A stretch of DNA of 64,000 nt from an uncultured delta proteobacterium (GTDB lineage Bacteria; Desulfobacterota; Binatia; UBA9968): NCBI GenBank assembly GCA_963816145.1, contig CAWFJP010000004.1, positions 64,001 to 128,000 on the forward strand, read 5' to 3'. The position numbers were made by a program, and so were the translations under genes. This document shows, piece by piece, positions 7,226 to 25,586 of this stretch. The notes under the pieces were generated by a model. That model was given only the letters and a program-made list of their open reading frames with translations, ran no database searches and was not told the DNA's origin. How positions within the stretch are numbered: the stretch's first letter is position 1; each line of letters opens with the position of its first letter.

Positions 7226-7873
7226 CTAGTCCTTGTCCCGGCTGCGCTGTAGCTTTTCCCGGAGCTGCTCGCGATAGCGCCGTTTCTCCTCAAGCGTCCC
7301 ATGCTCTTTGAGTTCGCGAACTTTTTCGCGTAGCTCCTGTCTCTCATGGGCCGGCATGTTGTCGTAATGTTCGCGCAGCCTCTGCCGCTGCTCCTTCGTC
7401 TCCCCCAGCCGCTCGCGCCGCTCCATCAGCTGCCGGCGCAATTCTTGGCGCTTTTCCGGCGGCATTTCGCGCAGTGTCTGCAGGCGCCGTTTGATTTCTT
7501 CGCGCCGTTCGGGCGGCAGCTTGCGATATTCTTCCCAGCGTTTCTGCAAGCGTTCGCGCTCGTCCGGCGGCAGTTTCTGAAAGCGCTCAAAATTTCGCCG
7601 TGCCGTGGTCTTCTCTTCAGGGGGCAGTTTGCGCCAGTTGTCAAACTTATCCTGTAGGTCGGCTTTTTCTTTAGCGTCGAGGCTTTTCCAACGCTGGTAA
7701 CGCTCGCGCATTTCCTGTTTTTCTTCCTGCGACATCTTTTGCCAGCGGTCGAGGGATTCTTGTTCGTTCTGGACCGGCACGGGACCGGGGCGCGCGCTTT
7801 GGCTCCAAGCCGGCGCTGCCAGAAGCAATGCTGCAAGCCCGAATGGGAGCGCCGATTGGCCAAAATTTTTCAC
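7226..7873 (-). CDS. DUF3106-like secreted helical repeat protein
   Basis: Signal peptide (AWS-Q) followed by W/F-x-x-L/M-P-P-E-E-K/R repeats. Confidence 0.8.
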   Translation of the reverse strand: MKNFGQSALPFGLAALLLAAPAWSQSARPGPVPVQNEQESLDRWQKMSQEEKQEMRERYQRWKSLDAKEKADLQDKFDNWRKLPPEEKTTARRNFERFQKLPPDERERLQKRWEEYRKLPPERREEIKRRLQTLREMPPEKRQELRRQLMERRERLGETKEQRQRLREHYDNMPAHERQELREKVRELKEHGTLEEKRRYREQLREKLQRSRDKD

Positions 7874-8133
7874 TTGGGAGCCTCCTTCTTTGTCGCCGGA
7901 GCGGACTTTCGCGGCAGGGAATTCTTGGCTTGTTCGCCCAGCGACTCGGCTCGATCCAGTTCACGCATCATTTCCAGCTGCTTGATCATTTCCATTTCGC
8001 GCAAGAACTCGAGCATCTTGAGCATCTCTTTGTCCGGCGGGTCGGCTTGCTTTGTCGCGCCGAATCCGACGGATGCGGCGATCAGGAGAATGCCCAGTGG
8101 TAACCAACGGTAGGTCATGGTGCGGACCGTCAA
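7870..8133 (-). CDS. Small secreted protein carrying an anti-sigma-tail-like motif (start TTG 8133 or ATG 8118)
   Basis: 4-nt overlaps with both neighbours; hydrophobic signal; LEFLREMEMIKQLEMMRELD. Confidence 0.75.
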   Translation of the reverse strand: MTVRTMTYRWLPLGILLIAASVGFGATKQADPPDKEMLKMLEFLREMEMIKQLEMMRELDRAESLGEQAKNSLPRKSAPATKKEAPK

Positions 8134-8648
8134 GCCGCGTCGTTGGCCGAGTTGTCCATGGCTTCCAATAAGTCCAGGTTATCCAATACATCCATGGCGC
8201 GGAAGAATTCCAAGTTCTCCGCCACCGGCAGCGCTTCGGATAATTCATCGTCCGGTAGATCATTCTTGCCGTTCCATAAGCCGCGATTGAGGGTGAACGT
8301 CAGAGCCATGGCCAGCACCGCGACAGCGGCCAGAGCGGACAGGTAGCGCGGTTGAAAAATCGCGGTTAAATCTTGCCACCAAGGTTTATGGTCAACGGCG
8401 GCGTCGATTTTGTGGCGCAGCTCGCGGCTATAATCCATCCAGAACTCATGCGGCGGCGTGTCGGTTTTGACCGTTAACGGCATGAGCGTGGTAAGTTCCT
8501 TCAGGTAGTTCGAGCAGCCGGCGCAGTCGGCGAGATGAGCTTGCAGCCGTTCACGCTCGCCGCCGTCGAGGTCGCCGAAGTGAAACAATACAAGATCGGC
8601 TTCCAAGTCTGTGCAGGCAGTCGCCGCGGATTCGATTGGTTGCGCCAT
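8130..8648 (-). CDS. zf-HC2 (ZAS) membrane anti-sigma factor
   Basis: N-terminal Cys plus HLADCAGC zinc motif, one TM, short periplasmic tail; GGAGGAG RBS. Confidence 0.88.
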   Translation of the reverse strand: MAQPIESAATACTDLEADLVLFHFGDLDGGERERLQAHLADCAGCSNYLKELTTLMPLTVKTDTPPHEFWMDYSRELRHKIDAAVDHKPWWQDLTAIFQPRYLSALAAVAVLAMALTFTLNRGLWNGKNDLPDDELSEALPVAENLEFFRAMDVLDNLDLLEAMDNSANDAA

Positions 8649-8656
8649 AACTCCTC

Positions 8657-9322
8657 CTAGATCAACTCCGCCAAGCTTTGCCGCAGCGTGGTGACGGCGC
8701 GGTGCAGGTGTACTTTTACCGTGCCCTCGGCAGTTTCCATGGTTTCGGCGATTTCTCTGATCGAAAGCCCTTGGTGGTTCTTTAAAATAAATGCCGTGCG
8801 CTGTTTGGCCGGCAAGGTTTGCAGCGCGGCGTCTACTTTGCGCGAGAGCTGCCCCGCCAACACATGCTGTTCCGGCGCCAGCGGTTGAGCCGGGTTATGC
8901 GACGGTTCCATTTGATTCTCGATGTTCTCGTCAAATTCACCGGCGGATGTGCGCTTGGCGCGCCGCTTGTAATCGAGACAGACGTTGACCACGATGCGGT
9001 AAAACCAGGTGTAAAAGCTCGAGCGGCCGTCGAAGTTCTTCAAGTAGGTAAAAGCTTTTAAGAACGCTTCTTGGGACAAATCTTTGGCTTCCTCGCGATC
9101 TCGGGAGAAGCCAAAAGCGATATGGTAGGCCTTCTGTTTGTGGCGCTCGATCAGTTCATCGAACGCCCGGCGGTCGCCGTTTTGGGCCAATGCGACCAAT
9201 TCCTCATCCCCAGAGTTCGCCAATTGGCTCGTCCTGCCTTTCGTCGCTTCACGCGCGCTCGGATCACTGTGGAGGGGGCGGCGGAAGAATTCAAGTTCTT
9301 GCGCCGCTTGCAGGCATGCCAT
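8657..9322 (-). CDS. ECF RNA polymerase sigma factor
   Basis: Region 2 (DLSQEAFLKAF...FYTWFYRIVVN) and region 4 (LSIREIAETM...GTVKVHLHRA). Confidence 0.95.
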   Translation of the reverse strand: MACLQAAQELEFFRRPLHSDPSAREATKGRTSQLANSGDEELVALAQNGDRRAFDELIERHKQKAYHIAFGFSRDREEAKDLSQEAFLKAFTYLKNFDGRSSFYTWFYRIVVNVCLDYKRRAKRTSAGEFDENIENQMEPSHNPAQPLAPEQHVLAGQLSRKVDAALQTLPAKQRTAFILKNHQGLSIREIAETMETAEGTVKVHLHRAVTTLRQSLAELI

Positions 9323-9335
9323 GTCGGCTCCCGTT

Positions 9336-9731
9336 TTAGTTTGTCACGGCGTCTCGGCGGTCGCTGCGCAGTTCCTTGCGGTCCTGGCGCCGTTCGACGC
9401 GGTCCTGATGCAATTCTTTCCTGTCGCCTTTGATCTCGACCTTGTCCTGGACGATTTCTTTGCGGTCCTGGGCGATCTCTTGTGAGCTGGCGTTGTTCCT
9501 AACGTCCCGGCGCAATTCTCGACGGTCGGCGCGCAGCTGTCTAAAGTCTTTGCGCGACTCGCGACGGTCGCCCTTGATCTCCTGACGGTCGCGGTGGATT
9601 TCCTTGCGGTCCTGTCGCAGCTCGGCATTCTCCACGGGGGTGATCTTGCTTTCCGCCGCCAGCAGCGGTGATACTGCCACGGCCAAAGTAGCGACAAACA
9701 CTCCCGTGCTCATGACCGATTTACTTGTCAT
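9336..9731 (-). CDS. Secreted heptad-repeat (xxxDRxE) coiled-coil protein
   Basis: Signal peptide then ~12 seven-residue repeats such as LRQDRKE, IKGDRRE; GGAGG RBS. Confidence 0.8.
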   Translation of the reverse strand: MTSKSVMSTGVFVATLAVAVSPLLAAESKITPVENAELRQDRKEIHRDRQEIKGDRRESRKDFRQLRADRRELRRDVRNNASSQEIAQDRKEIVQDKVEIKGDRKELHQDRVERRQDRKELRSDRRDAVTN

Positions 9732-10048: not shown

Positions 10049-10077
10049 TTGACAAGCCATCCGGCTTCGACTAGCTT
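10049..10077 (+). promoter_or_regulatory. Sigma70-type promoter TTGACA-N17-TAGCTT (leaderless start at 10084)
   Basis: Perfect -35, 17-nt spacer, 6 nt between -10 and ATG, no SD. Confidence 0.75.
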
Positions 10078-10083
10078 CAAACC

Positions 10084-10380
10084 ATGTCAGTTTTTGGAGC
10101 TCGAACGGCAAACGCTTTCGGCCGCGCCGCTTGCGCCGTCACTTTGCTGTTCTTGTTCTTCCTGCCGCTGCATGTTCATTTTTCGCTGTCGCCGCAGTTG
10201 AGCAACCAATGCAGTTGCTTGCAGGGCGCGCGCGCGCAGTTCGTCGTCGCCGACAAAGCTCCGACGGTTGTGCCGGTCCCGCAATTTGCGGTTCTGCTCG
10301 AACCGCAGGTTTGCGCTTGGAGTTCTACCGCATCGCATTGCCAGTATGTCCGTGGCCCGCCTCTCTCAGTAGCCGTTTAG
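10084..10380 (+). CDS. RGPP leader/arrest peptide uORF 1 (DUF2946-like, HxH/CxC type)
   Basis: 98 aa; hydrophobic segment, HVH, CSCLQG, 44 aa, RGPP; paralogous to 10918 and 19382. Confidence 0.8.
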   Translation: MSVFGARTANAFGRAACAVTLLFLFFLPLHVHFSLSPQLSNQCSCLQGARAQFVVADKAPTVVPVPQFAVLLEPQVCAWSSTASHCQYVRGPPLSVAV

Positions 10381-10467
10381 TTCGACAATTTCAGCGATAC
10401 TAGTGTGTTCTCGGTGGCGTGTGCGCAAGCCGAGGCGAGTTGTTATCTATCGAGGGAGGGGCTTGTC

Positions 10468-10902
10468 ATGAACTTTTCTGTTGTTCGGACACCGCTTGTC
10501 GTGGTGTCTGCGGCTTTTACGTTTCTGTTGTTTCTATCGGAGCGAGGTTGGGGGCAAAGTACCGAGCTTGAATCGCTGCGCGCGCTCGTCAAGGGCATGG
10601 AACAGCAGCTGCAACAGGCTTTGCAGCGCATCGATCAGCTGGAAAAAGAAAAAGGGTCGACGTCAGTAAGGGTCGAGCAAGTCGAAAAATCAATTCAGGC
10701 GGTGCAAAGCGCGCCGACGGCGCTCAATCCAGCAATCACACCGATCCAACCGCTTGTCCCGGAGCTATGTCAACGAAACTCTTCTTATTTTACCGCATTA
10801 ACAAGTATTCACCGATGGAGGCCTGAGACAAAAAGCACTCCGGTCGAGGCATCCTCTCAGCTACGCGCGGACTCGTTGAATTTGACAAGTCTTAATTCCT
10901 AG
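10468..10902 (+). pseudogene. Truncated paralog of the outer-membrane porin gene at 19787 (signal peptide plus coiled coil only)
   Basis: QSTELESLRA...SAPTALNP matches the 19787 protein; homology stops at ~10731; strong SD GAGGGAGGGG at 10452-10461. Confidence 0.75.
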
Positions 10903-10917: not shown

Positions 10918-11214
10918 ATGGATCTCGCGCAGCTCTCGTTTCAAATAAAGCATAGACAGCGCTGCGTCGGCGTCTTATTGCTGCTAACCGTCTTTTTCCT
11001 GCTGTTTCATTTTCACCCCGCCACAGCGTCAACCGCACAGATTAATGGCGAATGTACCTGCCTGCATGGTACCCGGACCCAAATCGGAATTGCCCCGGTC
11101 ATGGTCCAGTTACCACTGCCCGTGCTGTTAGTTAGGTATTATTCATTCGAACCTCGGTTTGTGTCATTAAATACTGTTCGTTTCCGATCCATTCGCGGTC
11201 CGCCGGTTTTTTAG
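10918..11214 (+). CDS. RGPP leader/arrest peptide uORF 2
   Basis: 98 aa; hydrophobic segment, HFH, CTCLHG, 44 aa, RGPP. Confidence 0.8.
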   Translation: MDLAQLSFQIKHRQRCVGVLLLLTVFFLLFHFHPATASTAQINGECTCLHGTRTQIGIAPVMVQLPLPVLLVRYYSFEPRFVSLNTVRFRSIRGPPVF

Positions 11215-11293
11215 TCTCTCCGTCACCGTTTATTTTTCAGCTGTTTCTTGAAGATAGGAGCCACCTCGACCGTCCTCGGTCGCCCGCGGCCCG

Positions 11294-11328
11294 TTCTCCA
11301 TCCATTGGCCCTTAGCCGATTGGAGGAA
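11294..11328 (+). promoter_or_regulatory. Hairpin predicted to occlude SD GGAGGA of the MerC-domain gene
   Basis: TTCTCCATCCATTGGC-CCTTA-GCCGATTGGAGGAA pairs by eye with two single-base bulges. Confidence 0.55.
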
Positions 11329-11333
11329 TATTC

Positions 11334-11819
11334 ATGAATCAAAATGTCTCTGCCGTGGCGCCCCGCTCGTGGATCGATGCCCTCGGCAGCACGTTTTCAA
11401 TTGCCTGCGCCATGCAGTGTTCGGTTTTTCCGCTGCTCATCGGCGTGTTGCCGCTGTTAGGTTTGGGTTTTCTCTTAGGCGACGGCGTCGAGAAAGTCTT
11501 TCTGGGAACCTCAGTCGTGCTCGGCGTCAGCAGCTTCACTTGGGGATTTCGCTACCACCAACGTTTTTACGTCTTTGTTTTTTTGGTTTCGGCGTTAGCC
11601 TTGATCGGCGTCGGACGCTTTTGGGTTGACGACCGATACGAGACTCCAATCGTCGTCGCCGGAACGCTGGTTTTGGCCGCAGGCCATTTCCTCAATCGGC
11701 GACTATGCCGTCTTTGCGCCGAGTGCGACCGCCATGGAAGCGCGTCCGGCTCCCATGTCGCAAGCCATATGAGCACTGTCTCCGTTGCCAACGAAAGGAA
11801 CAACGATCATGAAGTCTAA
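11334..11819 (+). CDS. MerC-domain membrane protein
   Basis: WIDALGSTFSIACAMQC (MerC-like CxxxC), four TMs, GHFLN, C-terminal CRLCAEC and His residues. Confidence 0.8.
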   Translation: MNQNVSAVAPRSWIDALGSTFSIACAMQCSVFPLLIGVLPLLGLGFLLGDGVEKVFLGTSVVLGVSSFTWGFRYHQRFYVFVFLVSALALIGVGRFWVDDRYETPIVVAGTLVLAAGHFLNRRLCRLCAECDRHGSASGSHVASHMSTVSVANERNNDHEV

Positions 11820-12312
11820 GTTGATATTAGCTTTACTTTGTATCGGCCTGATCTCCCTGGGTTCACCCGCGGTGCATGTCTGCCGGATTATTCCCGGCTG
11901 GAGTGCGATTACCGTTGCTGGCGCTGCCAATGCTGCGGAAAAGATTCCGTCGCTTACCTGGGATAATCTCCGCAGGCTCAACCCGCAGTCGGGCAAAATG
12001 CCGGCGGACTTGAAGAAGCACGATGGTAACGTTGTGCGAGTTCCAGGTTTTATCATCCCGCTCGAAGACAATGACCAGGAAGTTTCAGAGTTTCTCCTCG
12101 TGCCCTACCCGTTGGCGTGCATTCATGTGCCGGCTCCGCCGCCCAATCAAATTGTCCATGTGAAAATGGAGAAGGGGAAGAAGGTTCCTTTCGATTTTTA
12201 CGCGCCGGTTTGGGCGCAAGGACGGCTCAAGATTCAACACGAGCAAAACATGTACACCGACACGTCGTACTTCATGAGCGGTCTCTCGATAGAACCGTAC
12301 CGAGAACGATAG
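11809..12312 (+). CDS. DUF3299 protein (ZrgD/PA4066-like)
   Basis: VRVPGFIIPLE...EFLLVPYPLACIHVPAPPPNQIVHV; AAGGA RBS. Confidence 0.88.
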   Translation: MKSKLILALLCIGLISLGSPAVHVCRIIPGWSAITVAGAANAAEKIPSLTWDNLRRLNPQSGKMPADLKKHDGNVVRVPGFIIPLEDNDQEVSEFLLVPYPLACIHVPAPPPNQIVHVKMEKGKKVPFDFYAPVWAQGRLKIQHEQNMYTDTSYFMSGLSIEPYRER

Positions 12313-12321
12313 GAGTGAGCC

Positions 12322-12891
12322 ATGTTCTATAAGACATTGTTAATTTCGGCACTCGGCATCTTTGCGCTGGGCGTTAATAAAGGAACCGCAGCTGAACAGC
12401 GCCATGCCGAAGCTCATGTGCACGGCATGGCGGAAATCAACATCGTAGTCGAAGGCAAGAGAGTTGTTGTGGAATTCCACACGCCCTCGGAAGGTCTAAT
12501 GGGTTTTGAGCATGAAGCCAAGACTGACGCAGAAAAGAAAAAACGTGACGCGGCAATGAAAATCGTCAACCAGCGGTCTAACGAACTGATCGTTTTCGAC
12601 AAACGAAGCGCTTGCAAATCGCGTAGTGCTACAGCTCGGATCGCGCGCGGTGAGGACCACGATACTAAAGACAAAACGCACGCGGCGGAAAATCAAAAGA
12701 TCAGCGGCGAGCACAGCGAACTCCAAGCCGTGTACCAATTTGAGTGTGATCGGTCGCCGCTAGGGACCAAAGTGAGTTTTGGCGTCTCGAAGCTGTTTCC
12801 TGACATTCACGAGATCAAAGTACAGATCTTGACCGACACCAAGCAAACCGGAGTAACGATCAAGAACGACAAAGGGAACGTCGAGCTTTAA
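12322..12891 (+). CDS. zrgA: DUF2796 periplasmic zinc-binding protein (ZrgA/PA4063-like)
   Basis: Signal peptide, HAEAHVHG, GFEH, HSEL...YQFEC motifs. Confidence 0.85.
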   Translation: MFYKTLLISALGIFALGVNKGTAAEQRHAEAHVHGMAEINIVVEGKRVVVEFHTPSEGLMGFEHEAKTDAEKKKRDAAMKIVNQRSNELIVFDKRSACKSRSATARIARGEDHDTKDKTHAAENQKISGEHSELQAVYQFECDRSPLGTKVSFGVSKLFPDIHEIKVQILTDTKQTGVTIKNDKGNVEL

Positions 12892-12897
12892 CCGGCT

Positions 12898-13575
12898 ATG
12901 GATTACGCCGTTGACATCGAGCAATTGATTTTTTCCTACCGTGGATCGAAGGCCGTGCTGCGTATTCCCGCTCTTACGATCGCCAAGGGTGAAAAAATTT
13001 TCCTCCATGGACCGAGCGGCAGCGGCAAAACCACGCTGCTCGGAATTCTCGCCGGTGTTCTCAGGGCGACCGAAGGACAGGTGACTATCTTGGGGCAAGA
13101 TCTCGCTCGAATGTCGGGACCCCGCCGCGATGCCCTTCGCGGTTCGCACATCGGTTACATCTTTCAGATGTTCAATCTAATTCCTTATCTCAATGTGCTG
13201 GAAAACATCATCCTGCCCTGCCGCATCAGCCCGGAACGCCAACGACGCTTGAACGGCCGATCGCAACACGATGAAGCCAAGAAATTAGCGGACCGATTGG
13301 GGATCGGGCCGATTGTAAGCGACAACGTCATCGATCTGAGCGTCGGCCAGCAGCAACGGGTGGCGGCGGCGCGCGCCTTGATGGGCGCTCCTGAGCTGAT
13401 CATCGCCGATGAACCGACATCGTCGTTGGACGAAGATCATCGCGAGGGATTTCTTCAACTGTTGTTCGATCAGTGCCGCGAGATCGGCTCGACGTTGATT
13501 TTTGTCAGCCACGATAGACGGATGATGCCGCTCTTCGATCGCGCCGTGTCGTTAGCAGAGATCAATAAGGTTTAA
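12898..13575 (+). CDS. ABC ATP-binding protein (ZrgB/PA4064-like, LolD-type)
   Basis: GPSGSGKTT, FQMFNLIPYL, LSVGQQQRVAAARAL, IADEPTS. Confidence 0.92.
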   Translation: MDYAVDIEQLIFSYRGSKAVLRIPALTIAKGEKIFLHGPSGSGKTTLLGILAGVLRATEGQVTILGQDLARMSGPRRDALRGSHIGYIFQMFNLIPYLNVLENIILPCRISPERQRRLNGRSQHDEAKKLADRLGIGPIVSDNVIDLSVGQQQRVAAARALMGAPELIIADEPTSSLDEDHREGFLQLLFDQCREIGSTLIFVSHDRRMMPLFDRAVSLAEINKV

Positions 13576-13576
13576 C

Positions 13577-14842
13577 ATGTTTCTGCTCTCGCTCGCATAC
13601 CGCTCATTGGCCAATCGCAAACTGACGACGATCGTTACATTGTTGTCGCTTGGACTGAGCGTCAGCCTTTGGATTGGGATCGAACAGATTCGTAGCGGCG
13701 CGCGCGAAAGTTTTTCCAACACTATCAGCCAAACCGATCTGATCGTCGGCGCGCGCGGCAGTCCGATCCAGTTGCTGCTCTACACGGTATTTCACATCGG
13801 TACGCCGACGGCGAACGTCACTTACAAGTCATACAAGGAAATCAAAGATCACAAAGCGGTGCTGTGGACGATTCCCATCTCTCTGGGCGACAGCCACCGC
13901 GGATACCGCGTAGTTGGCACAAACGAAGATTTTTACCAGCATTACCGTTACCGGCAAGACCAGCAATTGGAGTTTGGCCAAGGGCGCGCGCCGGCTGGGA
14001 TCTTTGATGTGGCGCTCGGCAGCGATGTGGCGCAGGCGTTGCGCTACGGTCTGGGAGCAAAGATCGTTGTCACTCACGGCATCACCAACAGCCGCGGCAT
14101 CATGGATCACGACGATAAGCCGTTTACAGTTGTCGGTGTCTTGCGGCCCACGCGCACCCCGATCGACCGTTCTCTTTATGTGACACTCGAAGGTATCGAA
14201 GCGATGCACATCGACTGGAAACAGGGCGCGCCGCCGATCAAAGGACAAGAAACCCCGGCGGAGAAAATCAAAAAGGAAGACATTAAAATTGACCAGATCA
14301 CGGCGTTTTTTCTGCGCACGAAGTCACGGGTGCAAACCCTCGCGCTGCAACGGGAGATCACCAATTTCCCTGACGAGCCGCTGACGGCGGTGGTTCCCGG
14401 TGTCGCTCTGAGCGAGCTTTGGACCGGTATCAGTTACGGCGAGCAAGTGCTCCAAGTGGTGGCGATCTTTGTCGTGATCGTCGGACTCCTCGGCATGTTG
14501 ATGTCGCTCTACACATCTTTGAACGAGCGGCGGCGGGAAATTGCCATTCTCAGGGCCTTGGGAGTTGGGCCGGTGAAAGTAATTTCCCTCTTGATATTCG
14601 AGTCGGGGCTGCTGACCTTAATCGGTACGGTTTTGGGGGTGGCTATAGTTTATGGTTCTGTTGCATTGTTGCAGCCGACGATTGAGCAGCAATTCGGCCT
14701 GCACATCCCGCTTAGGCCGCTCACGGGCACGCAGTATAGTTACCTGGTTTATGTAGTCTTTGGCGGAATTGCCGTCGGTCTCATTCCAGCCTGGAAAGCT
14801 TACCGAAATGCCCTCTCAGATGGCTTAAGCGTGCGAATTTAG
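13577..14842 (+). CDS. ABC permease, MacB/FtsX type (ZrgC/PA4065-like)
   Basis: DLIVGARGS, PISLGDSHRGYRVVGT, ERRREIAILRALG. Confidence 0.92.
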   Translation: MFLLSLAYRSLANRKLTTIVTLLSLGLSVSLWIGIEQIRSGARESFSNTISQTDLIVGARGSPIQLLLYTVFHIGTPTANVTYKSYKEIKDHKAVLWTIPISLGDSHRGYRVVGTNEDFYQHYRYRQDQQLEFGQGRAPAGIFDVALGSDVAQALRYGLGAKIVVTHGITNSRGIMDHDDKPFTVVGVLRPTRTPIDRSLYVTLEGIEAMHIDWKQGAPPIKGQETPAEKIKKEDIKIDQITAFFLRTKSRVQTLALQREITNFPDEPLTAVVPGVALSELWTGISYGEQVLQVVAIFVVIVGLLGMLMSLYTSLNERRREIAILRALGVGPVKVISLLIFESGLLTLIGTVLGVAIVYGSVALLQPTIEQQFGLHIPLRPLTGTQYSYLVYVVFGGIAVGLIPAWKAYRNALSDGLSVRI

Positions 14843-14945
14843 ATTTGCAGCGATGGGGATAGTGAAAAAAACTTCCTTGATGACGCTGCCGGTGCGGTAT
14901 CGTCGGAGGGTATACGAGTCTTGCTTATGATTTTGGAGATTTGAA

Positions 14946-15437
14946 ATGGAAAAACAAGCCGTCATTTTATTTCTGCTGTTAAGTTTGTTGCTCATCTCGA
15001 AAGGAATGAATTTTGCCGACGAATCCATTCCTGTTCGGCAACCGATTCGCGATAAGTTGGCGAACGCAGCGCGCCATTTTCTCGGGATGCCATATCGCTG
15101 GGGAGGGATGTCGGAGCGTCGCGGCATGGATTGCTCGGGGTTGGTCAAAGCGCTATTTGCCACATTACACATTGATTTGCCCAGGACTTCCCGCGAACAA
15201 TATCACGCCGGGGAAAATGTTGCTGTCGAAAACCTGCAAGCCGGCGACCTGCTCTTCTTTTCATCTGACGGCGTGACGCCGAATCACGTCGGTCTTTATA
15301 TCGGCGACAATCGTTTTGTTCACGCCGAGAAAAAAGCCGGACACGTCATCATCACGGAACTGAATCAGCCTTGGTACGTTAAGCATTTCCTGGGAGCACG
15401 CCGTATTGTGGAATCGGAAGAAGGGCGACGCACATGA
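14946..15437 (+). CDS. NlpC/P60 (C40) peptidoglycan endopeptidase
   Basis: GMPYRWGG, MDCSG, LPRTS, GDLLFF, HVGLYIG, HA. Confidence 0.93.
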   Translation: MEKQAVILFLLLSLLLISKGMNFADESIPVRQPIRDKLANAARHFLGMPYRWGGMSERRGMDCSGLVKALFATLHIDLPRTSREQYHAGENVAVENLQAGDLLFFSSDGVTPNHVGLYIGDNRFVHAEKKAGHVIITELNQPWYVKHFLGARRIVESEEGRRT

Positions 15438-19345: not shown

Positions 19346-19374
19346 TTGACTTCGCGAAGCACATTCGTTAGGTT
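19346..19374 (+). promoter_or_regulatory. Sigma70-type promoter TTGACT-N17-TAGGTT (leaderless start at GTG 19382)
   Basis: 17-nt spacer, 7 nt to GTG. Confidence 0.7.
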
Positions 19375-19381
19375 AAACGGC

Positions 19382-19678
19382 GTGGTTCTTTCAGGAATGA
19401 GAAGAGGATTTTCTATTCGCCGTCTCGTTACTGCGACGACTTTAGTATTTGTTTTCTTTCTACCATTTCATTTTCATCTTTCCGTTTCCGCGCAAATCAG
19501 TAAAGAGTGCACTTGCCTCCAAGGTGTTCGAACTCAGCTGGGTGCGATCGCGAATGTTACGGCGGTCGTCCAGCAGCTTTGGATTGCACGCGTTGCCAAT
19601 CAAGCGGTTTCTATTTGGGCCGAAGACAGATTGGAACAGCAGCATGTCCGAGGGCCACCCTTCCGAGCCTCCCTGTAG
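19382..19678 (+). CDS. RGPP leader/arrest peptide uORF 3
   Basis: 98 aa from GTG 19382 (ATG 19397 is an alternative); HFH, CTCLQG, 44 aa, RGPP. Confidence 0.8.
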   Translation: MVLSGMRRGFSIRRLVTATTLVFVFFLPFHFHLSVSAQISKECTCLQGVRTQLGAIANVTAVVQQLWIARVANQAVSIWAEDRLEQQHVRGPPFRASL

Positions 19679-19786
19679 TTCTTTGTTCGAAATCCGAATC
19701 GTAAAATAACTACGTCCGTTTCCCTTCTATTCTCACCTCTGAATCATAGGAGGGTGACGGAATGGTATTGGAGGGGGGGTAGCAAA

Positions 19787-21052
19787 ATGTTTCTATTATC
19801 AGCGAGGCTGCAACGGGTCGCGGCATTCGTTCTGGTGAGTCTATTGATTGGGTTTCCATCGGCTGCCCTGGCGCAAAGTTCGGAGTTGGAAGCGCTGCGC
19901 GCCACGGTCAAAAACATGGAGCAGCAAATGCAAAAGGCGTTGCAGCGTATCGATCAATTGGAAAAGGAAAAAACTTCGACAACCGTGCGCGTCGAGCAAG
20001 TCGAAAAATCAGTTCAGGCGGTGCAGAGCGCGCCCACAGCGCTAAACCCCTCGATGGGGCTGGTGCTTGATGCGAATGTCCAAAATCTTGGCAAAGCGGG
20101 CGGCAATTTTGATTTCCGCAGCGCCGAGCTGGGAATCGCGGCTTCGGTGGACCCATTCGCCAGAATGTACAGTTTCTTCAACGGCTCAAAGGATGGTGTG
20201 GAGGTCGATGAAGCGGCAGCGATCACTTCTTCGCTGCCATGGAACTTGACGGCCAAGGGCGGCCGATTCCTCGCCGACTTCGGGCGCTTGCCTAAAGTTC
20301 ACGAGCATGAGCTGCCGTTTGTGACTCAGCCGCTATCGATACAACGAATGGTCGGCGGTGAAACCCAGGCGGACGGCGTAGAAATGAATTATCTGTTCCC
20401 GACGCCGTTTTATCTGCGGGCCACGTTGGGAGGAATGAACAAGATCGGCGAGGATAACGATCAGGTAAGCAATTCCAAGCCGCGCTCGTGGAGCCGATTC
20501 ACCTATCTCGGCAGGCTCAACACCTATTTTGATCTAACTGATAATCAAAGCGTTGAAGTTGGCACGAGCATGGCCTATACGCCAGACCTGCGTCTGGCAG
20601 GTGATCCCAGCGGCGGCTATCGCGCGCTTAACGGCATCGATGTGACTTATCGCTACCAGCCCCTCAACAGCGCCGTTTACCAGGGTGTGACTTGGGGTAG
20701 TGAATGGTATACCAACAGCGAGCGGATACCATTTGATACCGACGCGAGTAGTTCTGCCAAACGACAACGGTCATACGGCGGCTATAGTTACGTTGAGGCG
20801 AAGCTGAACAAGAACTGGTCGACCGGATTCCAAGTCGACTACGCTCCCATGGTCGAGACCCCGGCACAGCGGACCATGAGTTACACACCTTTCGTGACCT
20901 GGAATCTCAGCGAATTTAATCGGCTGCGCTTTCAGTACAGTTACTTGAACAACAATTTTCGCGGGGCGGACAAAGCTGAAAACGGCAATCAATTTTTCCT
21001 CCAATGGACGACGGTCATCGGTGCTCATACCCATGGTTTTCTCGGTCGCTAA
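19787..21052 (+). CDS. Outer-membrane beta-barrel of the 'zinc-regulated TonB-dependent receptor/porin'-like family
   Basis: Signal peptide, N-terminal coiled coil, FNRLRFQY, C-terminal IGAHTHGF; precedes a metal ABC transporter. Confidence 0.8.
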   Translation: MFLLSARLQRVAAFVLVSLLIGFPSAALAQSSELEALRATVKNMEQQMQKALQRIDQLEKEKTSTTVRVEQVEKSVQAVQSAPTALNPSMGLVLDANVQNLGKAGGNFDFRSAELGIAASVDPFARMYSFFNGSKDGVEVDEAAAITSSLPWNLTAKGGRFLADFGRLPKVHEHELPFVTQPLSIQRMVGGETQADGVEMNYLFPTPFYLRATLGGMNKIGEDNDQVSNSKPRSWSRFTYLGRLNTYFDLTDNQSVEVGTSMAYTPDLRLAGDPSGGYRALNGIDVTYRYQPLNSAVYQGVTWGSEWYTNSERIPFDTDASSSAKRQRSYGGYSYVEAKLNKNWSTGFQVDYAPMVETPAQRTMSYTPFVTWNLSEFNRLRFQYSYLNNNFRGADKAENGNQFFLQWTTVIGAHTHGFLGR

Positions 21053-21079
21053 GGATTTTCCCAAGGGAGTCTACTTATT

Positions 21080-22009
21080 ATGATTAAAAAATTAACGCGA
21101 GGAATAAACTGGAAAACATTTCTCTTCGCTTTTACATTTCTTTCCTTACAAACGGGTTTGGTATTCGCACAGCAGATTCGTGTAGTGGCGACCTTTCCTG
21201 ATCTCGCCGACATAACCCGGCAGATCGGCAAAGAGCTGGTCACTGTGGATAGTCTGGCCACGGGAATCGAAGACCCTCACGGGGTTCCCATGAAACCGAG
21301 CTTTGTGCCTCGATTAAACAGAGCTGACGTAATAGTCCTCACGGGTTTGGATGACGAGCATTCATGGCTTCCCGCGTTACTGGAAGTGGCAGCCAATTCA
21401 AAAATTCTTCTCGGCCGTCCGGGCTACATAGATTGTTCTGTTGGAGTACCGGTGCTTGAAGCGCCGACTCTCGTGGACCGCTCGGAGGGAGATATGCACC
21501 CGAAGGGGAATCCGCACTTCATGTTAGATCCTGTCAAAGCGAAAATCGCAGCGCGGAACATCGCTTCTGGCCTTTCCCGGAATTTTCCTCAACATCAGCA
21601 GGTTTTTGACAAAAATCTCAAAGCCTATGTTGCGGAACTGGATAGTTGGATTGCACGCTGGGAAAAGCTGGCGATGCCTCTCCGGGGTATCAAATATGTA
21701 GAATATCATCCCCAATGGATATATTTCGCCGATCGATTCGGTATGAAACGGATTGGGAGTGTTGAACTGAAGCCAGGGATAGAACCAACGCCTAATCATA
21801 TCGTGGAATTGGTGCAGACAATCAAACAAGAGAAACCTCAGTTACTCCTTTACGGTGCTCAGAACCCGCGACTTCCGCAACAAATCTCAGCTGAGACAGG
21901 TATCAAGGTTCTTCGTCTTTACAGTAACGCGGGAGCGCAACCTGAGACGGATAGCTATATAAAATGGATCGATTATACTGTGCGTACTCTAGTTCAGGCG
22001 GTTAGTTAG
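21080..22009 (+). CDS. znuA: Metal ABC transporter substrate-binding protein (ZnuA/TroA family)
   Basis: EDPH, GDMHPKGNPHFMLDP, YH, ELKPGIEPT. Confidence 0.88.
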   Translation: MIKKLTRGINWKTFLFAFTFLSLQTGLVFAQQIRVVATFPDLADITRQIGKELVTVDSLATGIEDPHGVPMKPSFVPRLNRADVIVLTGLDDEHSWLPALLEVAANSKILLGRPGYIDCSVGVPVLEAPTLVDRSEGDMHPKGNPHFMLDPVKAKIAARNIASGLSRNFPQHQQVFDKNLKAYVAELDSWIARWEKLAMPLRGIKYVEYHPQWIYFADRFGMKRIGSVELKPGIEPTPNHIVELVQTIKQEKPQLLLYGAQNPRLPQQISAETGIKVLRLYSNAGAQPETDSYIKWIDYTVRTLVQAVS

Positions 22010-22011
22010 AC

Positions 22012-22746
22012 TTGATAAAACAGGATCGAGATGTCGACGCAATCGCAGGCGCCAGAGGTGAAGAGTCGGAAAAAAGCTCTTCGCCTCTGGTTTCTCTTGA
22101 AAATGTAAACCTGGGCTATGATTCCACCCCGGTGGTTCGAGACGTCAATCTCGCTATCTTTCCGGGGAGCCTCATCGGTCTGGCCGGGCCCAACGGTTCA
22201 GGCAAGACCACGCTGTTCAGAACAATTCTAGGGTTACTGCCGCCTGTTAGCGGAACTCTTTCCCGCAGTTGTCCCTTGTCAAACTTTGGCTACGTGCCGC
22301 AAAGCGCAGCGCTCGATCCGCAATTTCCGCTGAGCGCGTCAGAGGTCGTGGAGATGGGCGCCTACGGCCGTGTCCGCCCATATCAGTTTTTACCGGCGAG
22401 TGAAAAGGCGCGAGTCAAAGAAGTTTTGCAACAAATTGGCTTGCCGCAGCTCGCGGCGAGATCGTTTTTTTCTTTGTCCGGTGGCCAAAAACAACGGATG
22501 CTGATTGCGCGCGCGTTGATGGTAAATCCAAAGATCATGATTTTAGACGAGCCGCTTTCTGGAGTGGACGAAGAGTCCCGGCGCAGCATCGCCGATCTAT
22601 TAACAAAACTCACCCGCGAAAAGGGATTGGCGGTGTTTTTTTCCAGCCACGACCTTGAGATGGTGCAACGCGTGGCCGATGGTATCGTGCGCATCGATAA
22701 AGGACAGATTTGGTTGGACGAAAGAAAGGCACGACTTCATCCATGA
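22012..22746 (+). CDS. znuC: Metal ABC transporter ATP-binding protein
   Basis: GPNGSGKTT, GYVPQ, LSGGQKQR, ILDEPLSGVD, SHD. Confidence 0.88.
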   Translation: MIKQDRDVDAIAGARGEESEKSSSPLVSLENVNLGYDSTPVVRDVNLAIFPGSLIGLAGPNGSGKTTLFRTILGLLPPVSGTLSRSCPLSNFGYVPQSAALDPQFPLSASEVVEMGAYGRVRPYQFLPASEKARVKEVLQQIGLPQLAARSFFSLSGGQKQRMLIARALMVNPKIMILDEPLSGVDEESRRSIADLLTKLTREKGLAVFFSSHDLEMVQRVADGIVRIDKGQIWLDERKARLHP

Positions 22747-24188
22747 GCGCTCTATTTGAAATCATAAGCCCCTCATATTTGCTCTTTCCAGCACTCGTGG
22801 GCACGATGATCATGGGCTTGGTTTGTCCACTGGTGGGATCGTTCCTGGTTCTTAGACGCACGGTGTTTCTTGGATTAACCCTTCCGGAAATTGCTGCCGC
22901 TGGAGTCGCTTTTACGTTCTGGATGCAGCAGGCGGGCCTCTTGCCACAGATGGGACAAAGCGAAAGAGGTGTTGCGATGGTGGGGTCGCTCGTCTTTACG
23001 TTCCTCGGCATGGGGCTGCTCGGTTATCTGGAGCAGCGCGGCAAAGGCCCAGCGGAAGGCCGCCTCGCCGCGGCATACGCATTTGCCGGCGCTCTAACGA
23101 TCTTGTTCATGGTTTTTAATCCCGCGGGTCAGATAGAAGTTCTCAATCTACTGAAGGGTGAAGTGATCGCACTATCCAAAGGAGAACTGCGACTTGTAGT
23201 TGCAGTGTTTGGCTTAGTTTTATTGGCGATGGTTTTCTTCCGCCGTGAGTTTCTTCTGACTTCTTTCGATCGGGACTTAGCATTCTTGCTCAAAGGCCGC
23301 CAAGTGATTTGGGACATATTGCTTTATCTTCTTGCCGGCTTAATCATCGCCGTCGGGGTGATCATCGCGGGACCGCTGCTGATTTTCGGATTCCTGGTCT
23401 TGCCGGCGCTGGCAGCTAAACCTTTGGTCCACCGGATGAGTTCTTTCCTTATGCTTTCTTCAGCGTTGGGTATGATGATGGCATTTTTCGGTTTTTACAG
23501 CTCCGTCAGGTTGGATCTTCCTTTAGGACCAACAGACGTGGCTCTGGGATGCTGCCTGATCTTTCTGGCGTACGGAATCCGGCGGATTTCAACCAGAGGT
23601 TTTGCGGCAACGATCCTGACATGCGTTGCTATTTCCGTTTCCGCTTGCAGCACGCCAGTCCCTCCACCACCCATTCCTGAGGCTAAAGCGATTCATGCAG
23701 ATCTAGTCTGGTTGGCCAAGGTCAAAAATAGCACTGCGTTGCCGCTGATATTGCCGGAGTCCAATCCGCTGCGATCGTTGGCCGAAATGGCCGGCAAGCT
23801 TGCCCCCGAGACACGCGCCAACGTGATGGATTTGCTGCGTCAAAATCTCCAAACTGAACTCGCGCAACAAGGCTTCCAGATTTTTCTACCTGAGGCCAAG
23901 GATGTGCGCTTTCCGCCGTTTGCCGCCGACGCCGTTAGCGCCGCCCGGGTGGCGCGCGAGGGGAATCTTTCGGGGTTGATTTTCGTCTGTGAGATTTGGC
24001 GCTGGGAAGGCGAAACGCAAAAGTTCGTGCGCGCTCTGGTCGATTTCAAACTCGTCCGCATCGATGACGGCACCGTCGTCTGGGAGCGCCGCGTGCAACG
24101 CGCGGTTCCCACCCCGAGCGCGACCAATCTCGGTCAGGCATCGACCGATGCCGTAAAGGCAATTATCCACGACTTATTCGCGGGATGA
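22743..24188 (+). CDS. znuB: Metal ABC permease (ABC-3) fused to a C-terminal lipoprotein-like domain
   Basis: ~280-aa ABC-3 permease (LVGSFLVLRR, SFDRDLA, FLVLPALAA), then RR..R-hydrophobic-VSAC and a ~180-aa soluble domain. Confidence 0.85.
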   Translation: MSALFEIISPSYLLFPALVGTMIMGLVCPLVGSFLVLRRTVFLGLTLPEIAAAGVAFTFWMQQAGLLPQMGQSERGVAMVGSLVFTFLGMGLLGYLEQRGKGPAEGRLAAAYAFAGALTILFMVFNPAGQIEVLNLLKGEVIALSKGELRLVVAVFGLVLLAMVFFRREFLLTSFDRDLAFLLKGRQVIWDILLYLLAGLIIAVGVIIAGPLLIFGFLVLPALAAKPLVHRMSSFLMLSSALGMMMAFFGFYSSVRLDLPLGPTDVALGCCLIFLAYGIRRISTRGFAATILTCVAISVSACSTPVPPPPIPEAKAIHADLVWLAKVKNSTALPLILPESNPLRSLAEMAGKLAPETRANVMDLLRQNLQTELAQQGFQIFLPEAKDVRFPPFAADAVSAARVAREGNLSGLIFVCEIWRWEGETQKFVRALVDFKLVRIDDGTVVWERRVQRAVPTPSATNLGQASTDAVKAIIHDLFAG

Positions 24189-24200
24189 AAAGAGGATGTC

Positions 24201-24950
24201 ACGTCTGCTACATGGATTTATAGCCTCGCCAGCGTTGTTTTGGTGAGTCTGCTGTCGCTTGTCGGTATCGCTTTTATCTCACTGAGCGAATTGCGTTTGA
24301 AGCAGCTGATATTCGCCATGGTTAGCCTCGCTGTCGGCAGTTTGTTCGGCGACGCATTCATCCATCTGTTGCCCAAGTCATTTGAGCAGAGGCCGGAGAA
24401 GATGCAAGTGTCGCTCTCAATTCTTGCCGGAATCTTTACATTTTTTATTTTGGAAAAATTTCTTCTTTGGCGTCACAAGCACGTGCTGGAATCCGAGCAT
24501 GCGATCCACCCCGTCGGGTACATGAATCTACTGGCAGACGGCGTGCACAACTTTATTGACGGCGCGATTATCGGAGCGTCTTATCTGGTCAGCTATCAGA
24601 TTGGCGTGGCGACTACCCTGGCGGTGATTTTTCACGAGATCCCGCATGAGCTCGGAAACTTCTTCGTTTTGCTCTATGCCGGATTCACCAAGACGAAAGC
24701 GCTCTTGTTCAACTTTATATCGGCATTGTTCGCGATTTTGGGAACTGTAATTTCGTTGTCCGTCGGTTCTCGGGTGCAACAATTTGCTTCGCTGATGCTG
24801 CCGATCGCCGCCGGCGGTTTTATTTACATCGCCGGTTCCGATCTAGTTCCCGAGCTGAATAAAGAGGTGCAACTATCCAAATCGATCATGCAGATGATCG
24901 CTATAGGAACCGGCGTTGGATTAATGCTGTTATTGACGCTGCTGGAATGA
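24201..24950 (+). CDS. ZIP family metal transporter (no canonical start before TTG 24240; ACG 24201 suspected)
   Basis: GDAFIHLLP, DGVHNFIDG, HEIPHELG, AGGFIYIAGSDLVPEL. Confidence 0.88.
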   Translation, partial: TSATWIYSLASVVLVSLLSLVGIAFISLSELRLKQLIFAMVSLAVGSLFGDAFIHLLPKSFEQRPEKMQVSLSILAGIFTFFILEKFLLWRHKHVLESEHAIHPVGYMNLLADGVHNFIDGAIIGASYLVSYQIGVATTLAVIFHEIPHELGNFFVLLYAGFTKTKALLFNFISALFAILGTVISLSVGSRVQQFASLMLPIAAGGFIYIAGSDLVPELNKEVQLSKSIMQMIAIGTGVGLMLLLTLLE

Positions 24951-24962
24951 GGTTATCGCACT

Positions 24963-25586
24963 ATGGCTCACCGTCGTCCTCCGCTTATGCGCGCATTGCA
25001 GCTCAATACCGCGGTTCTGGTCGTAGAGATCGCCGCCGGAATTGGCTCTAACAGTTTTAGCCTCATCATGGATGGCATCCATAATCTTTCCGACGAAGTC
25101 GCGCTTGTGCTGCTGGTGCTAGCCTATAGTCTTAGAGCGGGTCTTTCAGGCAAGCTGTTGCGCTACGCAAACCTGTTCAACTCAGTCGGACTTTTAGCGA
25201 TCTCGGTCTTCCTGACCTTGCGTGTTGTTGAGCGCCTGTCTTACCCCGTCGAAGTGGTCGGCGTTGTCCCGATCATAGCCGGTTTGATCGGAGCAGCAGC
25301 CAACTGGGGCGTCGCTCGCGTGTTGCGCGAAGCCGCCAAAGAGGACGTGGCCATTCGTCTAGCTTACGTCCACAATCTCGGCGACACTTTGGTTTCGCTC
25401 ATTCCGGTAGCAGCTGGCATTTTCATTTTTGCCTCGGGAAATTTTCTATTTGACTCGTTGTTCGCCTTGCTGATTGCCGCCGTTGTGGTGGTTACGACGC
25501 TGCAAGCCGTCGTGGGGTCCCACCAAGAGCTGCTGTGGCCGGAGAATGTTTCGTGCGGGCATGCGGAAGTTGATCTAAAGATTTGA
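24963..25586 (+). CDS. Cation diffusion facilitator, membrane domain only
   Basis: DGIHNLSD (TM2) and AYVHNLGD (TM5) HxxxD motifs; no C-terminal domain. Confidence 0.85.
   Translation: MAHRRPPLMRALQLNTAVLVVEIAAGIGSNSFSLIMDGIHNLSDEVALVLLVLAYSLRAGLSGKLLRYANLFNSVGLLAISVFLTLRVVERLSYPVEVVGVVPIIAGLIGAAANWGVARVLREAAKEDVAIRLAYVHNLGDTLVSLIPVAAGIFIFASGNFLFDSLFALLIAAVVVVTTLQAVVGSHQELLWPENVSCGHAEVDLKI

Follow-up and report, generated by a model that had tools for sequence, protein, structure and literature searches.

Three small leader genes with a fixed spacing rule are described here from a 64,000-nucleotide (nt) stretch of DNA, hereafter the window, which covers positions 64,001 to 128,000 of contig CAWFJP010000004.1 (assembly GCA_963816145.1) from an uncultured delta proteobacterium of the Binatia. 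These upstream open reading frames (uORFs), named uORF1, uORF2 and uORF3, lie on the plus strand and encode peptides in which exactly 44 residues separate a CxC motif from an RGPP motif near the C-terminus. The same spacing is found far beyond chance across the whole family to which the three leaders belong, and it is the length of the linker that is conserved, without its sequence. The genes behind the leaders are, by their family assignments, metal-uptake genes, several of them in families named for zinc. The leaders are likely arrest peptides that sense a metal, whatever the metal and the polarity of the response. A more specific model is favored here with moderate confidence, based on the sequence features and on analogy with the leaders CruR and CutF: uORF1-3 would be cis-acting regulatory leaders of this kind, in which zinc relieves the arrest.

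A spacer of constant length

The three leaders share a common plan. Each starts with a basic N-terminus and a hydrophobic stretch ending in LP(L/F)HxH, which is followed, after a gap of 10, 12 and 10 residues in uORF1, uORF2 and uORF3, respectively, by (E/Q)CxC and then by L(Q/H)GxR(A/T)Q. RGPP stands at the end of the 44-residue linker, and a tail of 5, 2 and 5 residues, respectively, leads to the stop codon. All three are 98 amino acids (aa) long, uORF3 if it is read from GTG 19382. This is most likely its start codon, giving the same length as in uORF1 and uORF2; the longest frame, from TTG 19280, has 132 aa. The initial annotation, made from the sequence of the window, had counted 44 residues between the second Cys and the Arg of RGPP in each leader, and a recount gave exactly this number in all three. 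The linker strings quoted there also agree with the sequence, and the positions that it singled out, 10209-10362, run from CxC through RGPP of uORF1. The family profile, run against all six frames of the complete assembly (7.8 Mb, 31 contigs), found only these three ORFs, and no significant match to Pfam or NCBIfam was obtained for any of them.

Among homologs, the spacer lengths form essentially a single spike at 44. A profile of uORF1-3 gave 86 matches in a word-indexed protein collection, of which 83 have 44 residues; the remaining three are one protein with 45, one frameshifted form and one fragment. An exhaustive HMMER search of 1.84 billion cluster representatives yielded 135 proteins at E <= 0.001. 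The pooled set holds 226 proteins, and one of 3571 aa was excluded. In the remaining 225, the spacer has 44 residues in 208, 45 in five and 42 in one, and the other 11 are without one of the two motifs (truncated, frameshifted or mutated); the spacing is therefore 44 in 208 of the 214 pooled relatives having both motifs. Two weak profile matches were odd: P0164, a 3571-aa protein with 39 matched stretches, and P0217, a 150-aa repeat protein with a CECLQGTR-like motif.

A profile made from sequences of equal length could favor relatives of equal length, and an independent metagenome control was therefore made. For this control, 80 metagenome loci were taken via two N-terminal peptide patterns alone, leaving the spacer free between 10 and 120 residues, and the distance was measured from CxC to the last RxPP ahead of the stop codon. 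The spacer has 44 residues in 84 of the 85 ORFs (84 of the 84 with both motifs), the other ORF being without RxPP, and two loci hold no complete ORF. In addition, 25 of 26 species-representative genome loci carry one or two 44-residue ORFs, found with a search pattern that presupposed this length. An N-terminal word search using residues 1-55 of the relative P0034 is a weak control, as it returned only 27 close relatives. The hypothesis that the leaders are spurious ORFs was ruled out by conservation over hundreds of sequences.

Other distances were followed in 113 representatives clustered at 50% identity. The gap between HxH and CxC varies, with 10, 11 and 12 residues in 25, 73 and 15 representatives, respectively. 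The tail has 5, 2, 3, 4, 6 and 8 residues in 67, 24, 10, 7, 3 and 2 of them, respectively, and is 1-8 residues long when the metagenome ORFs are added. A start codon lies 27-31 codons ahead of HxH in 87 of 91 distinct leaders, which makes the N-terminal length also nearly fixed.

The claim that the last ~35 residues of the linker show almost no similarity holds for the family as well. In a gapless line-up of the 113 representatives on CxC, the mean pairwise identity is 0.154 at +8 to +41, compared to 0.64 for the helix end with HxH and 0.55 for the CxC block. Exceptions within the linker are a Pro at +19 (84 of 113) and an Ile or Val at +44. The information content is high in K-E-C-x-C-x-[H/Q]-G-x-R-T-Q-x-G, moderate at these two positions and low otherwise. 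Across 104 diverse members aligned with MAFFT, one His, both Cys and the R, P and P of the C-terminal motif are invariant, and L, P, the other His and one Gly are nearly so. The stall-type motif is RAPP in 90 representatives, RGPP in 19, RSPP in three and RDPP in one, and RAPP and RGPP are interchangeable within the family.

With the 104-member alignment, AlphaFold2 predicted a single helix at residues 7-26 and coil for the rest, with a mean predicted local distance difference test (pLDDT) score of 72 and a predicted template modeling (pTM) score of 0.30. The putative N-terminal signal was judged from this helix and by inspection of the basic N-terminus and the hydrophobic stretch behind it. 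The plan of the family can be written as an N-terminal helix, LPLHxH, KECxCxxGxRTQ, 44 residues from the second Cys, R[A/G]PP, a tail of 1-8 residues and the stop codon. The family corresponds to no Pfam or NCBIfam model.

Genes behind the leaders and spread of the family

Multiple metal-uptake families were found behind the leaders. The 84 downstream ORFs of the 26 genome loci include ZnuA (19), ABC-3 (16), ABC_tran (15), NlpC/P60 (3), ZIP (1) and MerC (1). The 117 downstream ORFs of the 80 metagenome loci gave ZnuA (17), NlpC/P60 (16), ABC_tran (10), ABC-3 (9), MerC (8), DUF3299 (5), FecCD (4), ZrgA (2) and single cases of others. No Sec or YidC family was found among these 84 and 117 scanned ORFs.

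In the window, uORF2 and uORF3 precede operons with such genes (Table 1), and the gene after uORF1 is a truncated paralog of the porin-like gene behind uORF3. Its product is 82% identical to the porin-like protein over residues 30-90 and unrelated beyond. For this reason, uORF1 is considered to head a remnant. The promoter region of uORF2 lies directly after this remnant gene. Elsewhere, uORF1-type relatives (loci L011 and L020) head complete porin-ZnuABC operons.

The porin-like gene is the first gene in most operons and encodes a protein of 416-449 aa that starts with a signal-like segment and contains a coiled-coil stretch. The porin-like protein of the window has no sequence match in Pfam, NCBIfam or the solved structures of the PDB. 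Its nearest language-model clusters are Binatota hypotheticals, and one neighboring cluster has Porin_O_P in 22% of its members. The protein may be an outer-membrane zinc channel. A gene for an NlpC/P60 cell-wall hydrolase also recurs behind the leaders, both in the uORF2 operon and in the metagenome loci. This enzyme may replace zinc-dependent wall hydrolases in zinc starvation, as a zinc-independent substitute.

Titled genome records with the family are mostly metagenome-assembled genomes of Candidatus Binatia or 'Deltaproteobacteria', with single records from Chloroflexota, Eisenbacteria, Acidiferrales, Udaeobacter and Syntrophobacter. Of 61 related genomes, including two unpublished ones (G005 and G035), 30 carry the family, the window's own genome among them. 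By group, it was found in 22 of 30 genomes of the genus, 26 of 36 of the family f1, three of five of f2 and none of 19 of f3.

Predicted pairing of the leader end with the next Shine-Dalgarno region

The downstream genes have strong Shine-Dalgarno (SD) runs, and the leaders are without them. The intergenic distance is 87, 119 and 108 nt after uORF1, uORF2 and uORF3, respectively, and 73-122 nt across loci. RNA was folded from the Arg codon to the next start codon, and the minimum-energy structure was used. In these structures, the Pro-Pro and tail codons at the uORF 3' end take up at least 5 nt of the SD region in 25 of the 29 leader-gene pairs that the window and the genome loci provide, and likewise in 21 of 26 metagenome pairs with a tail of at least 4 residues, which form an independent set. 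The SD region is paired with some partner in 49 of 50 metagenome pairs.

The partner lies inside or beside the footprint of a ribosome that has the first Pro codon in its P site. When this footprint is masked, the SD core is unpaired with a mean probability of 0.24 instead of 0.08, and the value rises from 0.00 to 0.41 for uORF1 and from 0.14 to 0.37 for uORF3. The region is also more stable than its dinucleotide shuffles (mean z -1.98; 20 of 26 below -1 and 13 of 26 below -2).

A stable inner hairpin, often CCCUCC...GGGAGGG, was observed between the uORF stop codon and the true SD (19714-19760 in the window; loci L014-L018, L020 and L026). uORF1, L009 and L011 have a hairpin of different sequence at the same place. 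The 3' arm of the inner hairpin is a second SD-like run. This hairpin could bring the pairing partners together, or it could be a decoy or a pause site.

Leaders with a two-residue tail form a separate class, to which uORF2 belongs. In this class, the next gene is MerC-like or NlpC/P60, the intergenic region (~120 nt) is conserved and the SD lies in a local hairpin. Examples of this region are, besides the one in the window, L001 3789-3913, L007 1587-1710 and those of L034-L044. A conserved CGCGGCCCG stretch ~30 nt upstream of the SD is the predicted pairing partner of the RxPP codons in uORF2 and L007.

Promoter-like elements and an RNA-library contig

Promoter-like elements end 6 nt ahead of the uORF1 start codon and 7 nt ahead of GTG 19382 of uORF3. 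A TTGACA-N16-18-TAnnnT motif ending 6-8 nt before the start codon was found at 16 of the 91 distinct leaders, compared to one of 1820 random control positions. The loci concerned are uORF1, uORF3 and 14 others (e.g., L002-L006 and L012), and the start codon, GTG in 11 and ATG in five, lies 29 codons before HxH. This arrangement suggests that the leader transcripts are leaderless, which would explain why the leaders are without an SD. Generic scans for a sigma-70 consensus and for terminators reported nothing at the leaders.

Twenty sequencing runs contain part of the stretch, and one of them is recorded as RNA (metatranscriptome X18). Its contig of 188 nt (19526-19713) runs without mismatch through the 3' half of uORF3 and 35 nt into the intergenic region, and includes nothing of the porin-like gene. 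The two runs compared with the window, X18 and X1, gave this contig and patchy DNA contigs.

Table 1. Leaders, promoter-like and pairing elements, and neighboring genes in the window.
Feature	Position	Strand	Description
DUF3106 protein	7226-7873	-	Upstream of uORF1
zf-HC2 anti-sigma factor	8130-8648	-	Upstream of uORF1
ECF sigma factor	8657-9322	-	Upstream of uORF1
131-aa protein	9336-9731		RQDRKE-like repeats; no Pfam match
Promoter-like element	10049-10077	+	TTGACA-N17-TAGCTT; end 6 nt ahead of uORF1 ATG
uORF1	10084-10380	+	98 aa; HxH 10171-10179; CxC 10210-10218; linker 44 aa 10219-10350; RGPP 10351-10362; tail 5 aa 10363-10377; stop 10378-10380
uORF1 Pro-Pro and first tail codons	10357-10367	+	Pyrimidine-rich; predicted pairing with SD of next gene
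SD and start of gene after uORF1	10452-10470	+	SD run 10452-10461; ATG 10468
Gene after uORF1	10468-10902	+	Truncated paralog of porin-like gene 19787-21052
uORF2	10918-11214	+	98 aa, short-tail class; HxH 11008-11016; CxC 11053-11061; linker 11062-11193; RGPP 11194-11205; tail 2 aa 11206-11211; stop 11212-11214
Intergenic region after uORF2	11215-11336	+	119 nt; SD GGAGGA 11322-11327; ATG 11334; SD in predicted local hairpin
Operon behind uORF2	11334-15437	+	MerC-like (11334), DUF3299 (11806), ZrgA (12322), ATP-binding cassette (ABC) ATPase (12898), MacB/FtsX permease (13577), NlpC/P60 hydrolase (14946-15437)
Promoter-like element	19346-19374	+	TTGACT-N17-TAGGTT; end 7 nt ahead of GTG 19382
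uORF3	19382-19678	+	HxH 19469-19477; CxC 19508-19516; linker 19517-19648; RGPP 19649-19660; tail 19661-19675; stop 19676-19678; another ATG at 19397
uORF3 Gly-Pro-Pro and tail codons	19654-19669	+	Predicted pairing with SD 19770-19779
SD and start of porin-like gene	19770-19789	+	SD run 19770-19779; ATG 19787
Operon behind uORF3	19787-25586	+	Porin-like, 421 aa (19787-21052), ZnuA (21080), ABC ATPase (22012), ABC-3 permease (22710), ZIP (24240), cation-efflux family (24963)

Proposed mechanism

In the proposed mechanism, the leader would be translated, in part probably from a leaderless mRNA, and its basic and hydrophobic N-terminal segment would target the nascent chain to the membrane. Arrest would be the default state. 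The stalled ribosome would cover the Pro-Pro and tail codons, leaving the SD of the first operon gene open and the operon on, and it may also shield the transcript from Rho. By arithmetic, the end of the RTQ block lies 40 residues, the second Cys 47 residues and HxH 60-62 residues from the P-site residue. Some 30-40 residues fit in the exit tunnel, and a chain of about 50 residues is required to get to the far side of a docked translocon. At arrest, HxH...KECxCxxGxRTQ would be ~40-62 residues from the peptidyl-transferase center, which would place this conserved block just beyond the tunnel or the translocon, and the 44-residue spacer would set that distance. A chain threaded N-in/C-out would expose its loop from HxH to CxC on the outer side of the membrane.

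With enough zinc available, the metal would be bound by both His and both Cys, and the small compact fold formed in this way would pull the chain and release the arrest. The ribosome would terminate 2-5 codons later, the mRNA would refold and the operon would be switched off. This polarity, with arrest as the on state, fits uptake genes and matches CruR.

The initial annotation had proposed that the constant length reflects a geometric constraint, a ruler that places the metal site relative to the stalled ribosome. This idea agrees with the computed data and with the experiments on CruR; the stall, the metal binding and the release are steps that we infer. A further-reaching version, put forward tentatively, is that the family would be the first nascent-peptide zinc sensor: a translocon-threaded chain that gauges periplasmic zinc and gives a Zur-independent, post-transcriptional shut-off of ZnuABC, ZrgA and ZIP. 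The spacer would then put the HxH...CxC loop at the outer mouth of the channel, where zinc would close the His2Cys2 site and the resulting pull would restart translation. In this version, zinc would stand beside copper among the metals that are sensed by stalling leaders instead of riboswitches.

Points against the model and alternative explanations

Several observations weigh against the zinc-relieved leader model. Zinc is deduced from the neighboring genes only, and the ZnuA family includes Mn and Fe binders; the ZnuA of the window falls below the NCBIfam cut-offs (AztC 97.8 bits versus 350). Bacterial zinc uptake is controlled by the repressor Zur, and two FUR-family matches in the genome make control by Zur possible; a MAFFT alignment of the three upstream regions, beyond which no further Zur-box search was made, gave no shared operator or Zur-box-like palindrome. 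The evidence from RNA libraries is a single low-depth contig of 188 nt, which could derive from DNA. Shuffling of the tail leaves 6.2 nt of the SD paired, compared to 8.7 with the real tail; this difference reaches significance over all 29 pairs (Wilcoxon p = 2e-4) but not at most single loci. Since a sizeable share of shuffled tails pair as well as the real ones, the signal comes mostly from pyrimidine-rich Pro, Ser and Leu codons, and the pairing between tail and SD is largely compositional. RNAalifold on 26 aligned regions, from the R codon to the next start codon, gave no consensus structure and no common register, and no claim of covariation is therefore made. In the short-tail class from metagenomes, the SD is sequestered in 23 of 24 cases, but the uORF end is the partner in only 9 of 24, and uORF2 itself has 0 SD nt paired with the uORF end. 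Two further points come from known systems. The export signal of CruR is reported to be dispensable (PMC9426467), which puts the role of the conserved hydrophobic segment in doubt. In CutF, the metal strengthens the stall, and the polarity proposed here could accordingly be the reverse.

The same arrest leader might act through transcription, as is the case for CruR (PMC9426467). While stalled, the ribosome would keep Rho from loading onto the intergenic RNA and the C-rich uORF 3' end; once the arrest is released, transcription would terminate before the operon. This may replace or add to the unmasking of the SD, particularly in the short-tail class represented by uORF2. The long intergenic regions (73-122 nt) are consistent with this, as is the short-tail class with its mostly missing pairing between tail and SD, and the end of the RNA-library contig 35 nt past the uORF3 stop codon is a very weak hint in the same direction. 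The predicted sequestration of the SD in 49 of 50 pairs points instead to translational control, and the intergenic regions are structured, unlike the usual Rho-loading sites. On balance, we regard control through transcription as unlikely. An arrest peptide that responds to another input by means of the same geometry is improbable in our view. Such an input could be the capacity for Sec/YidC insertion, as for SecM, MifM and VemP, the oxidation of the CxC thiols in the periplasm, or Mn, Fe, Cu, Ni or Co. The conserved N-terminal helix and basic N-terminus would suit this explanation, the first RAPP-type arrest peptides to be discovered precede sec and yidC genes (PMC7897499, PMC12992588), and the model for CutF invokes disulfide formation (bioRxiv 10.1101/2025.02.05.636593). 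The incomplete zinc specificity of the ZnuA family and the low score of the window's ZnuA, both given above, would also be in line with it. Against it, neither tally of downstream genes contains sec or yidC, and the downstream sets include ZrgA, ZIP and DUF3299, with the Pfam names of ZrgA and ZIP referring to zinc uptake and zinc transport. In addition, two His and two Cys are a classical zinc ligand set.

The leaders could also be finished small membrane proteins of the uptake systems, such as a membrane-anchored zinc chaperone or assembly factor, with R-x-P-P merely slowing translation. Conserved His and Cys ligands, a putative membrane anchor and the constant position of the leader as the first gene of the operon would all suit such a protein. 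A working domain should keep its sequence, however, and here 34 linker residues are 15% identical at an invariant length, with no predicted fold beyond one helix. The uORF 3' codons are also predicted to pair with the next SD. Moreover, a strong avoidance of RAPP and RGPP is reported for proteomes, with the C-terminal region of small, exported, arrest-like proteins as the exception (PMC12992588). Taken together, this makes the small-protein explanation highly improbable.

Comparison with known metal-sensing and arrest leaders

The ruler is real and almost absolute, and its principle has already been published for copper, in CruR. If the zinc-relieved leader model is correct, the same stalling motif and nearly the same ruler, combined with a His2Cys2 site and zinc importers, would extend this principle to a second metal and to soil phyla that have been little studied, Binatia among them. 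According to PMC9426467, no copper or zinc riboswitch has been described, and CruR is called the first uORF responding to a transition metal. No zinc-linked stalling leader was found in the literature searched, and zinc and ZnuA are missing from the main text of PMC9973294 and PMC12992588, whose supplementary lists may include such proteins. The invariant 44 residues may also serve as a natural measure of the distance from the peptidyl-transferase center at which an event on the nascent chain is felt.

The closest known systems are the copper-sensing leaders CruR and CutF, CruR being the nearer of the two. In CruR (Bp2923 of Bordetella pertussis, a DUF2946 protein), copper acts via CXXC to relieve an arrest at a C-terminal RAPP, which leads to Rho-dependent termination ahead of the gene of a TonB-dependent transporter (PMC9426467). 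The CXXC-45-RAPP spacing is conserved within 1-2 residues and functionally needed: changes of ±1-2 residues are tolerated, and an insertion of five residues strongly cuts the copper control (PMC9426467). The leaders described here resemble CruR as a small first gene of a metal-acquisition operon, with a putative N-terminal export signal and a long intergenic region, and with a Cys motif at a conserved distance (45 in CruR, 44 here) to RAPP 2-5 residues before the stop codon. In both cases, the operon is needed when the metal is scarce, which makes arrest as the on state the logical polarity.

Multiple features set the new family apart from CruR. It has CxC, with both Cys invariant and one residue between them in 104 sequences, and an upstream LPLHxH, whereas CruR has CXXC. 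Its neighbors are ZnuABC, ZrgA and ZIP rather than TonB receptors, PepSY and copper chaperones, and it is found in Binatia and other soil phyla, while CruR-like leaders occur mainly in Proteobacteria. The ruler is tighter as well, with 97-100% exactly at 44, compared to the 'one or two residues' reported for DUF2946. Unmasking of the SD is predicted as the output, whereas Rho-dependent termination has been shown for CruR. Pfam DUF2946 (PF11162) gave no match in uORF1-3 at E up to 1, one match in the 104 family members (E 0.11, below any cut-off) and, across six frames of the complete genome, nothing at E up to 0.01. Language-model neighbors at 0.93-0.94 include clusters named DUF2946, which is a lead to distant kinship and not evidence for it.

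In CutF of Rhodobacter capsulatus, which has CxxxC and PPP, copper strengthens the stall, and this melts a stem-loop over the next ribosome-binding site (PMC9973294; bioRxiv 10.1101/2025.02.05.636593). Shared features would be an exported nascent peptide with a metal motif and a stall site of prolines at the C-terminus. uORF1-3 also fall within the rules given for CutF-like proteins in PMC9973294, as they have fewer than 150 aa, PP in the last 15 residues, a putative N-terminal signal and a same-strand gene within 1000 nt. CutF differs in having a stall that depends on elongation factor P (EF-P) and that is strengthened by metal to induce a detoxifying enzyme.

The stall-type motif itself is known from a wider group of arrest peptides. 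RAPP and RGPP are reported to cause a robust arrest refractory to EF-P and to be enriched toward the C-terminus in small proteins, exported or in the membrane, that are encoded upstream of a variety of genes, the metal-related ones being TonB receptors, YcnI, PCuAC and PepSY (PMC12992588). The stalled state has been seen in structures of ApdA and ApdP (PMC10951233). Like ApdA, ApdP, ApcA and SecM, the leaders described here have an R-A/G-P-P core toward the C-terminus and would be small proteins, exported or in the membrane, that control the next gene; in those peptides, a force acting on the nascent chain is believed to end the arrest (PMC7897499, PMC10951233, PMC12992588). In these accounts, ApdA, ApdP, ApcA and SecM differ in that they monitor protein export, sit upstream of sec or yidC and have no conserved His/Cys site and no reported fixed ruler.

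Compared to all of these systems, the new elements are a distinct sequence family, a His2Cys2-type ligand set, a consistent link to zinc importers, the occurrence in soil phyla and a predicted SecM- or CutF-like output via the tail codons. By analogy, the family would work like CruR and CutF without being a recognized member of DUF2946, and it is probably zinc-responsive.

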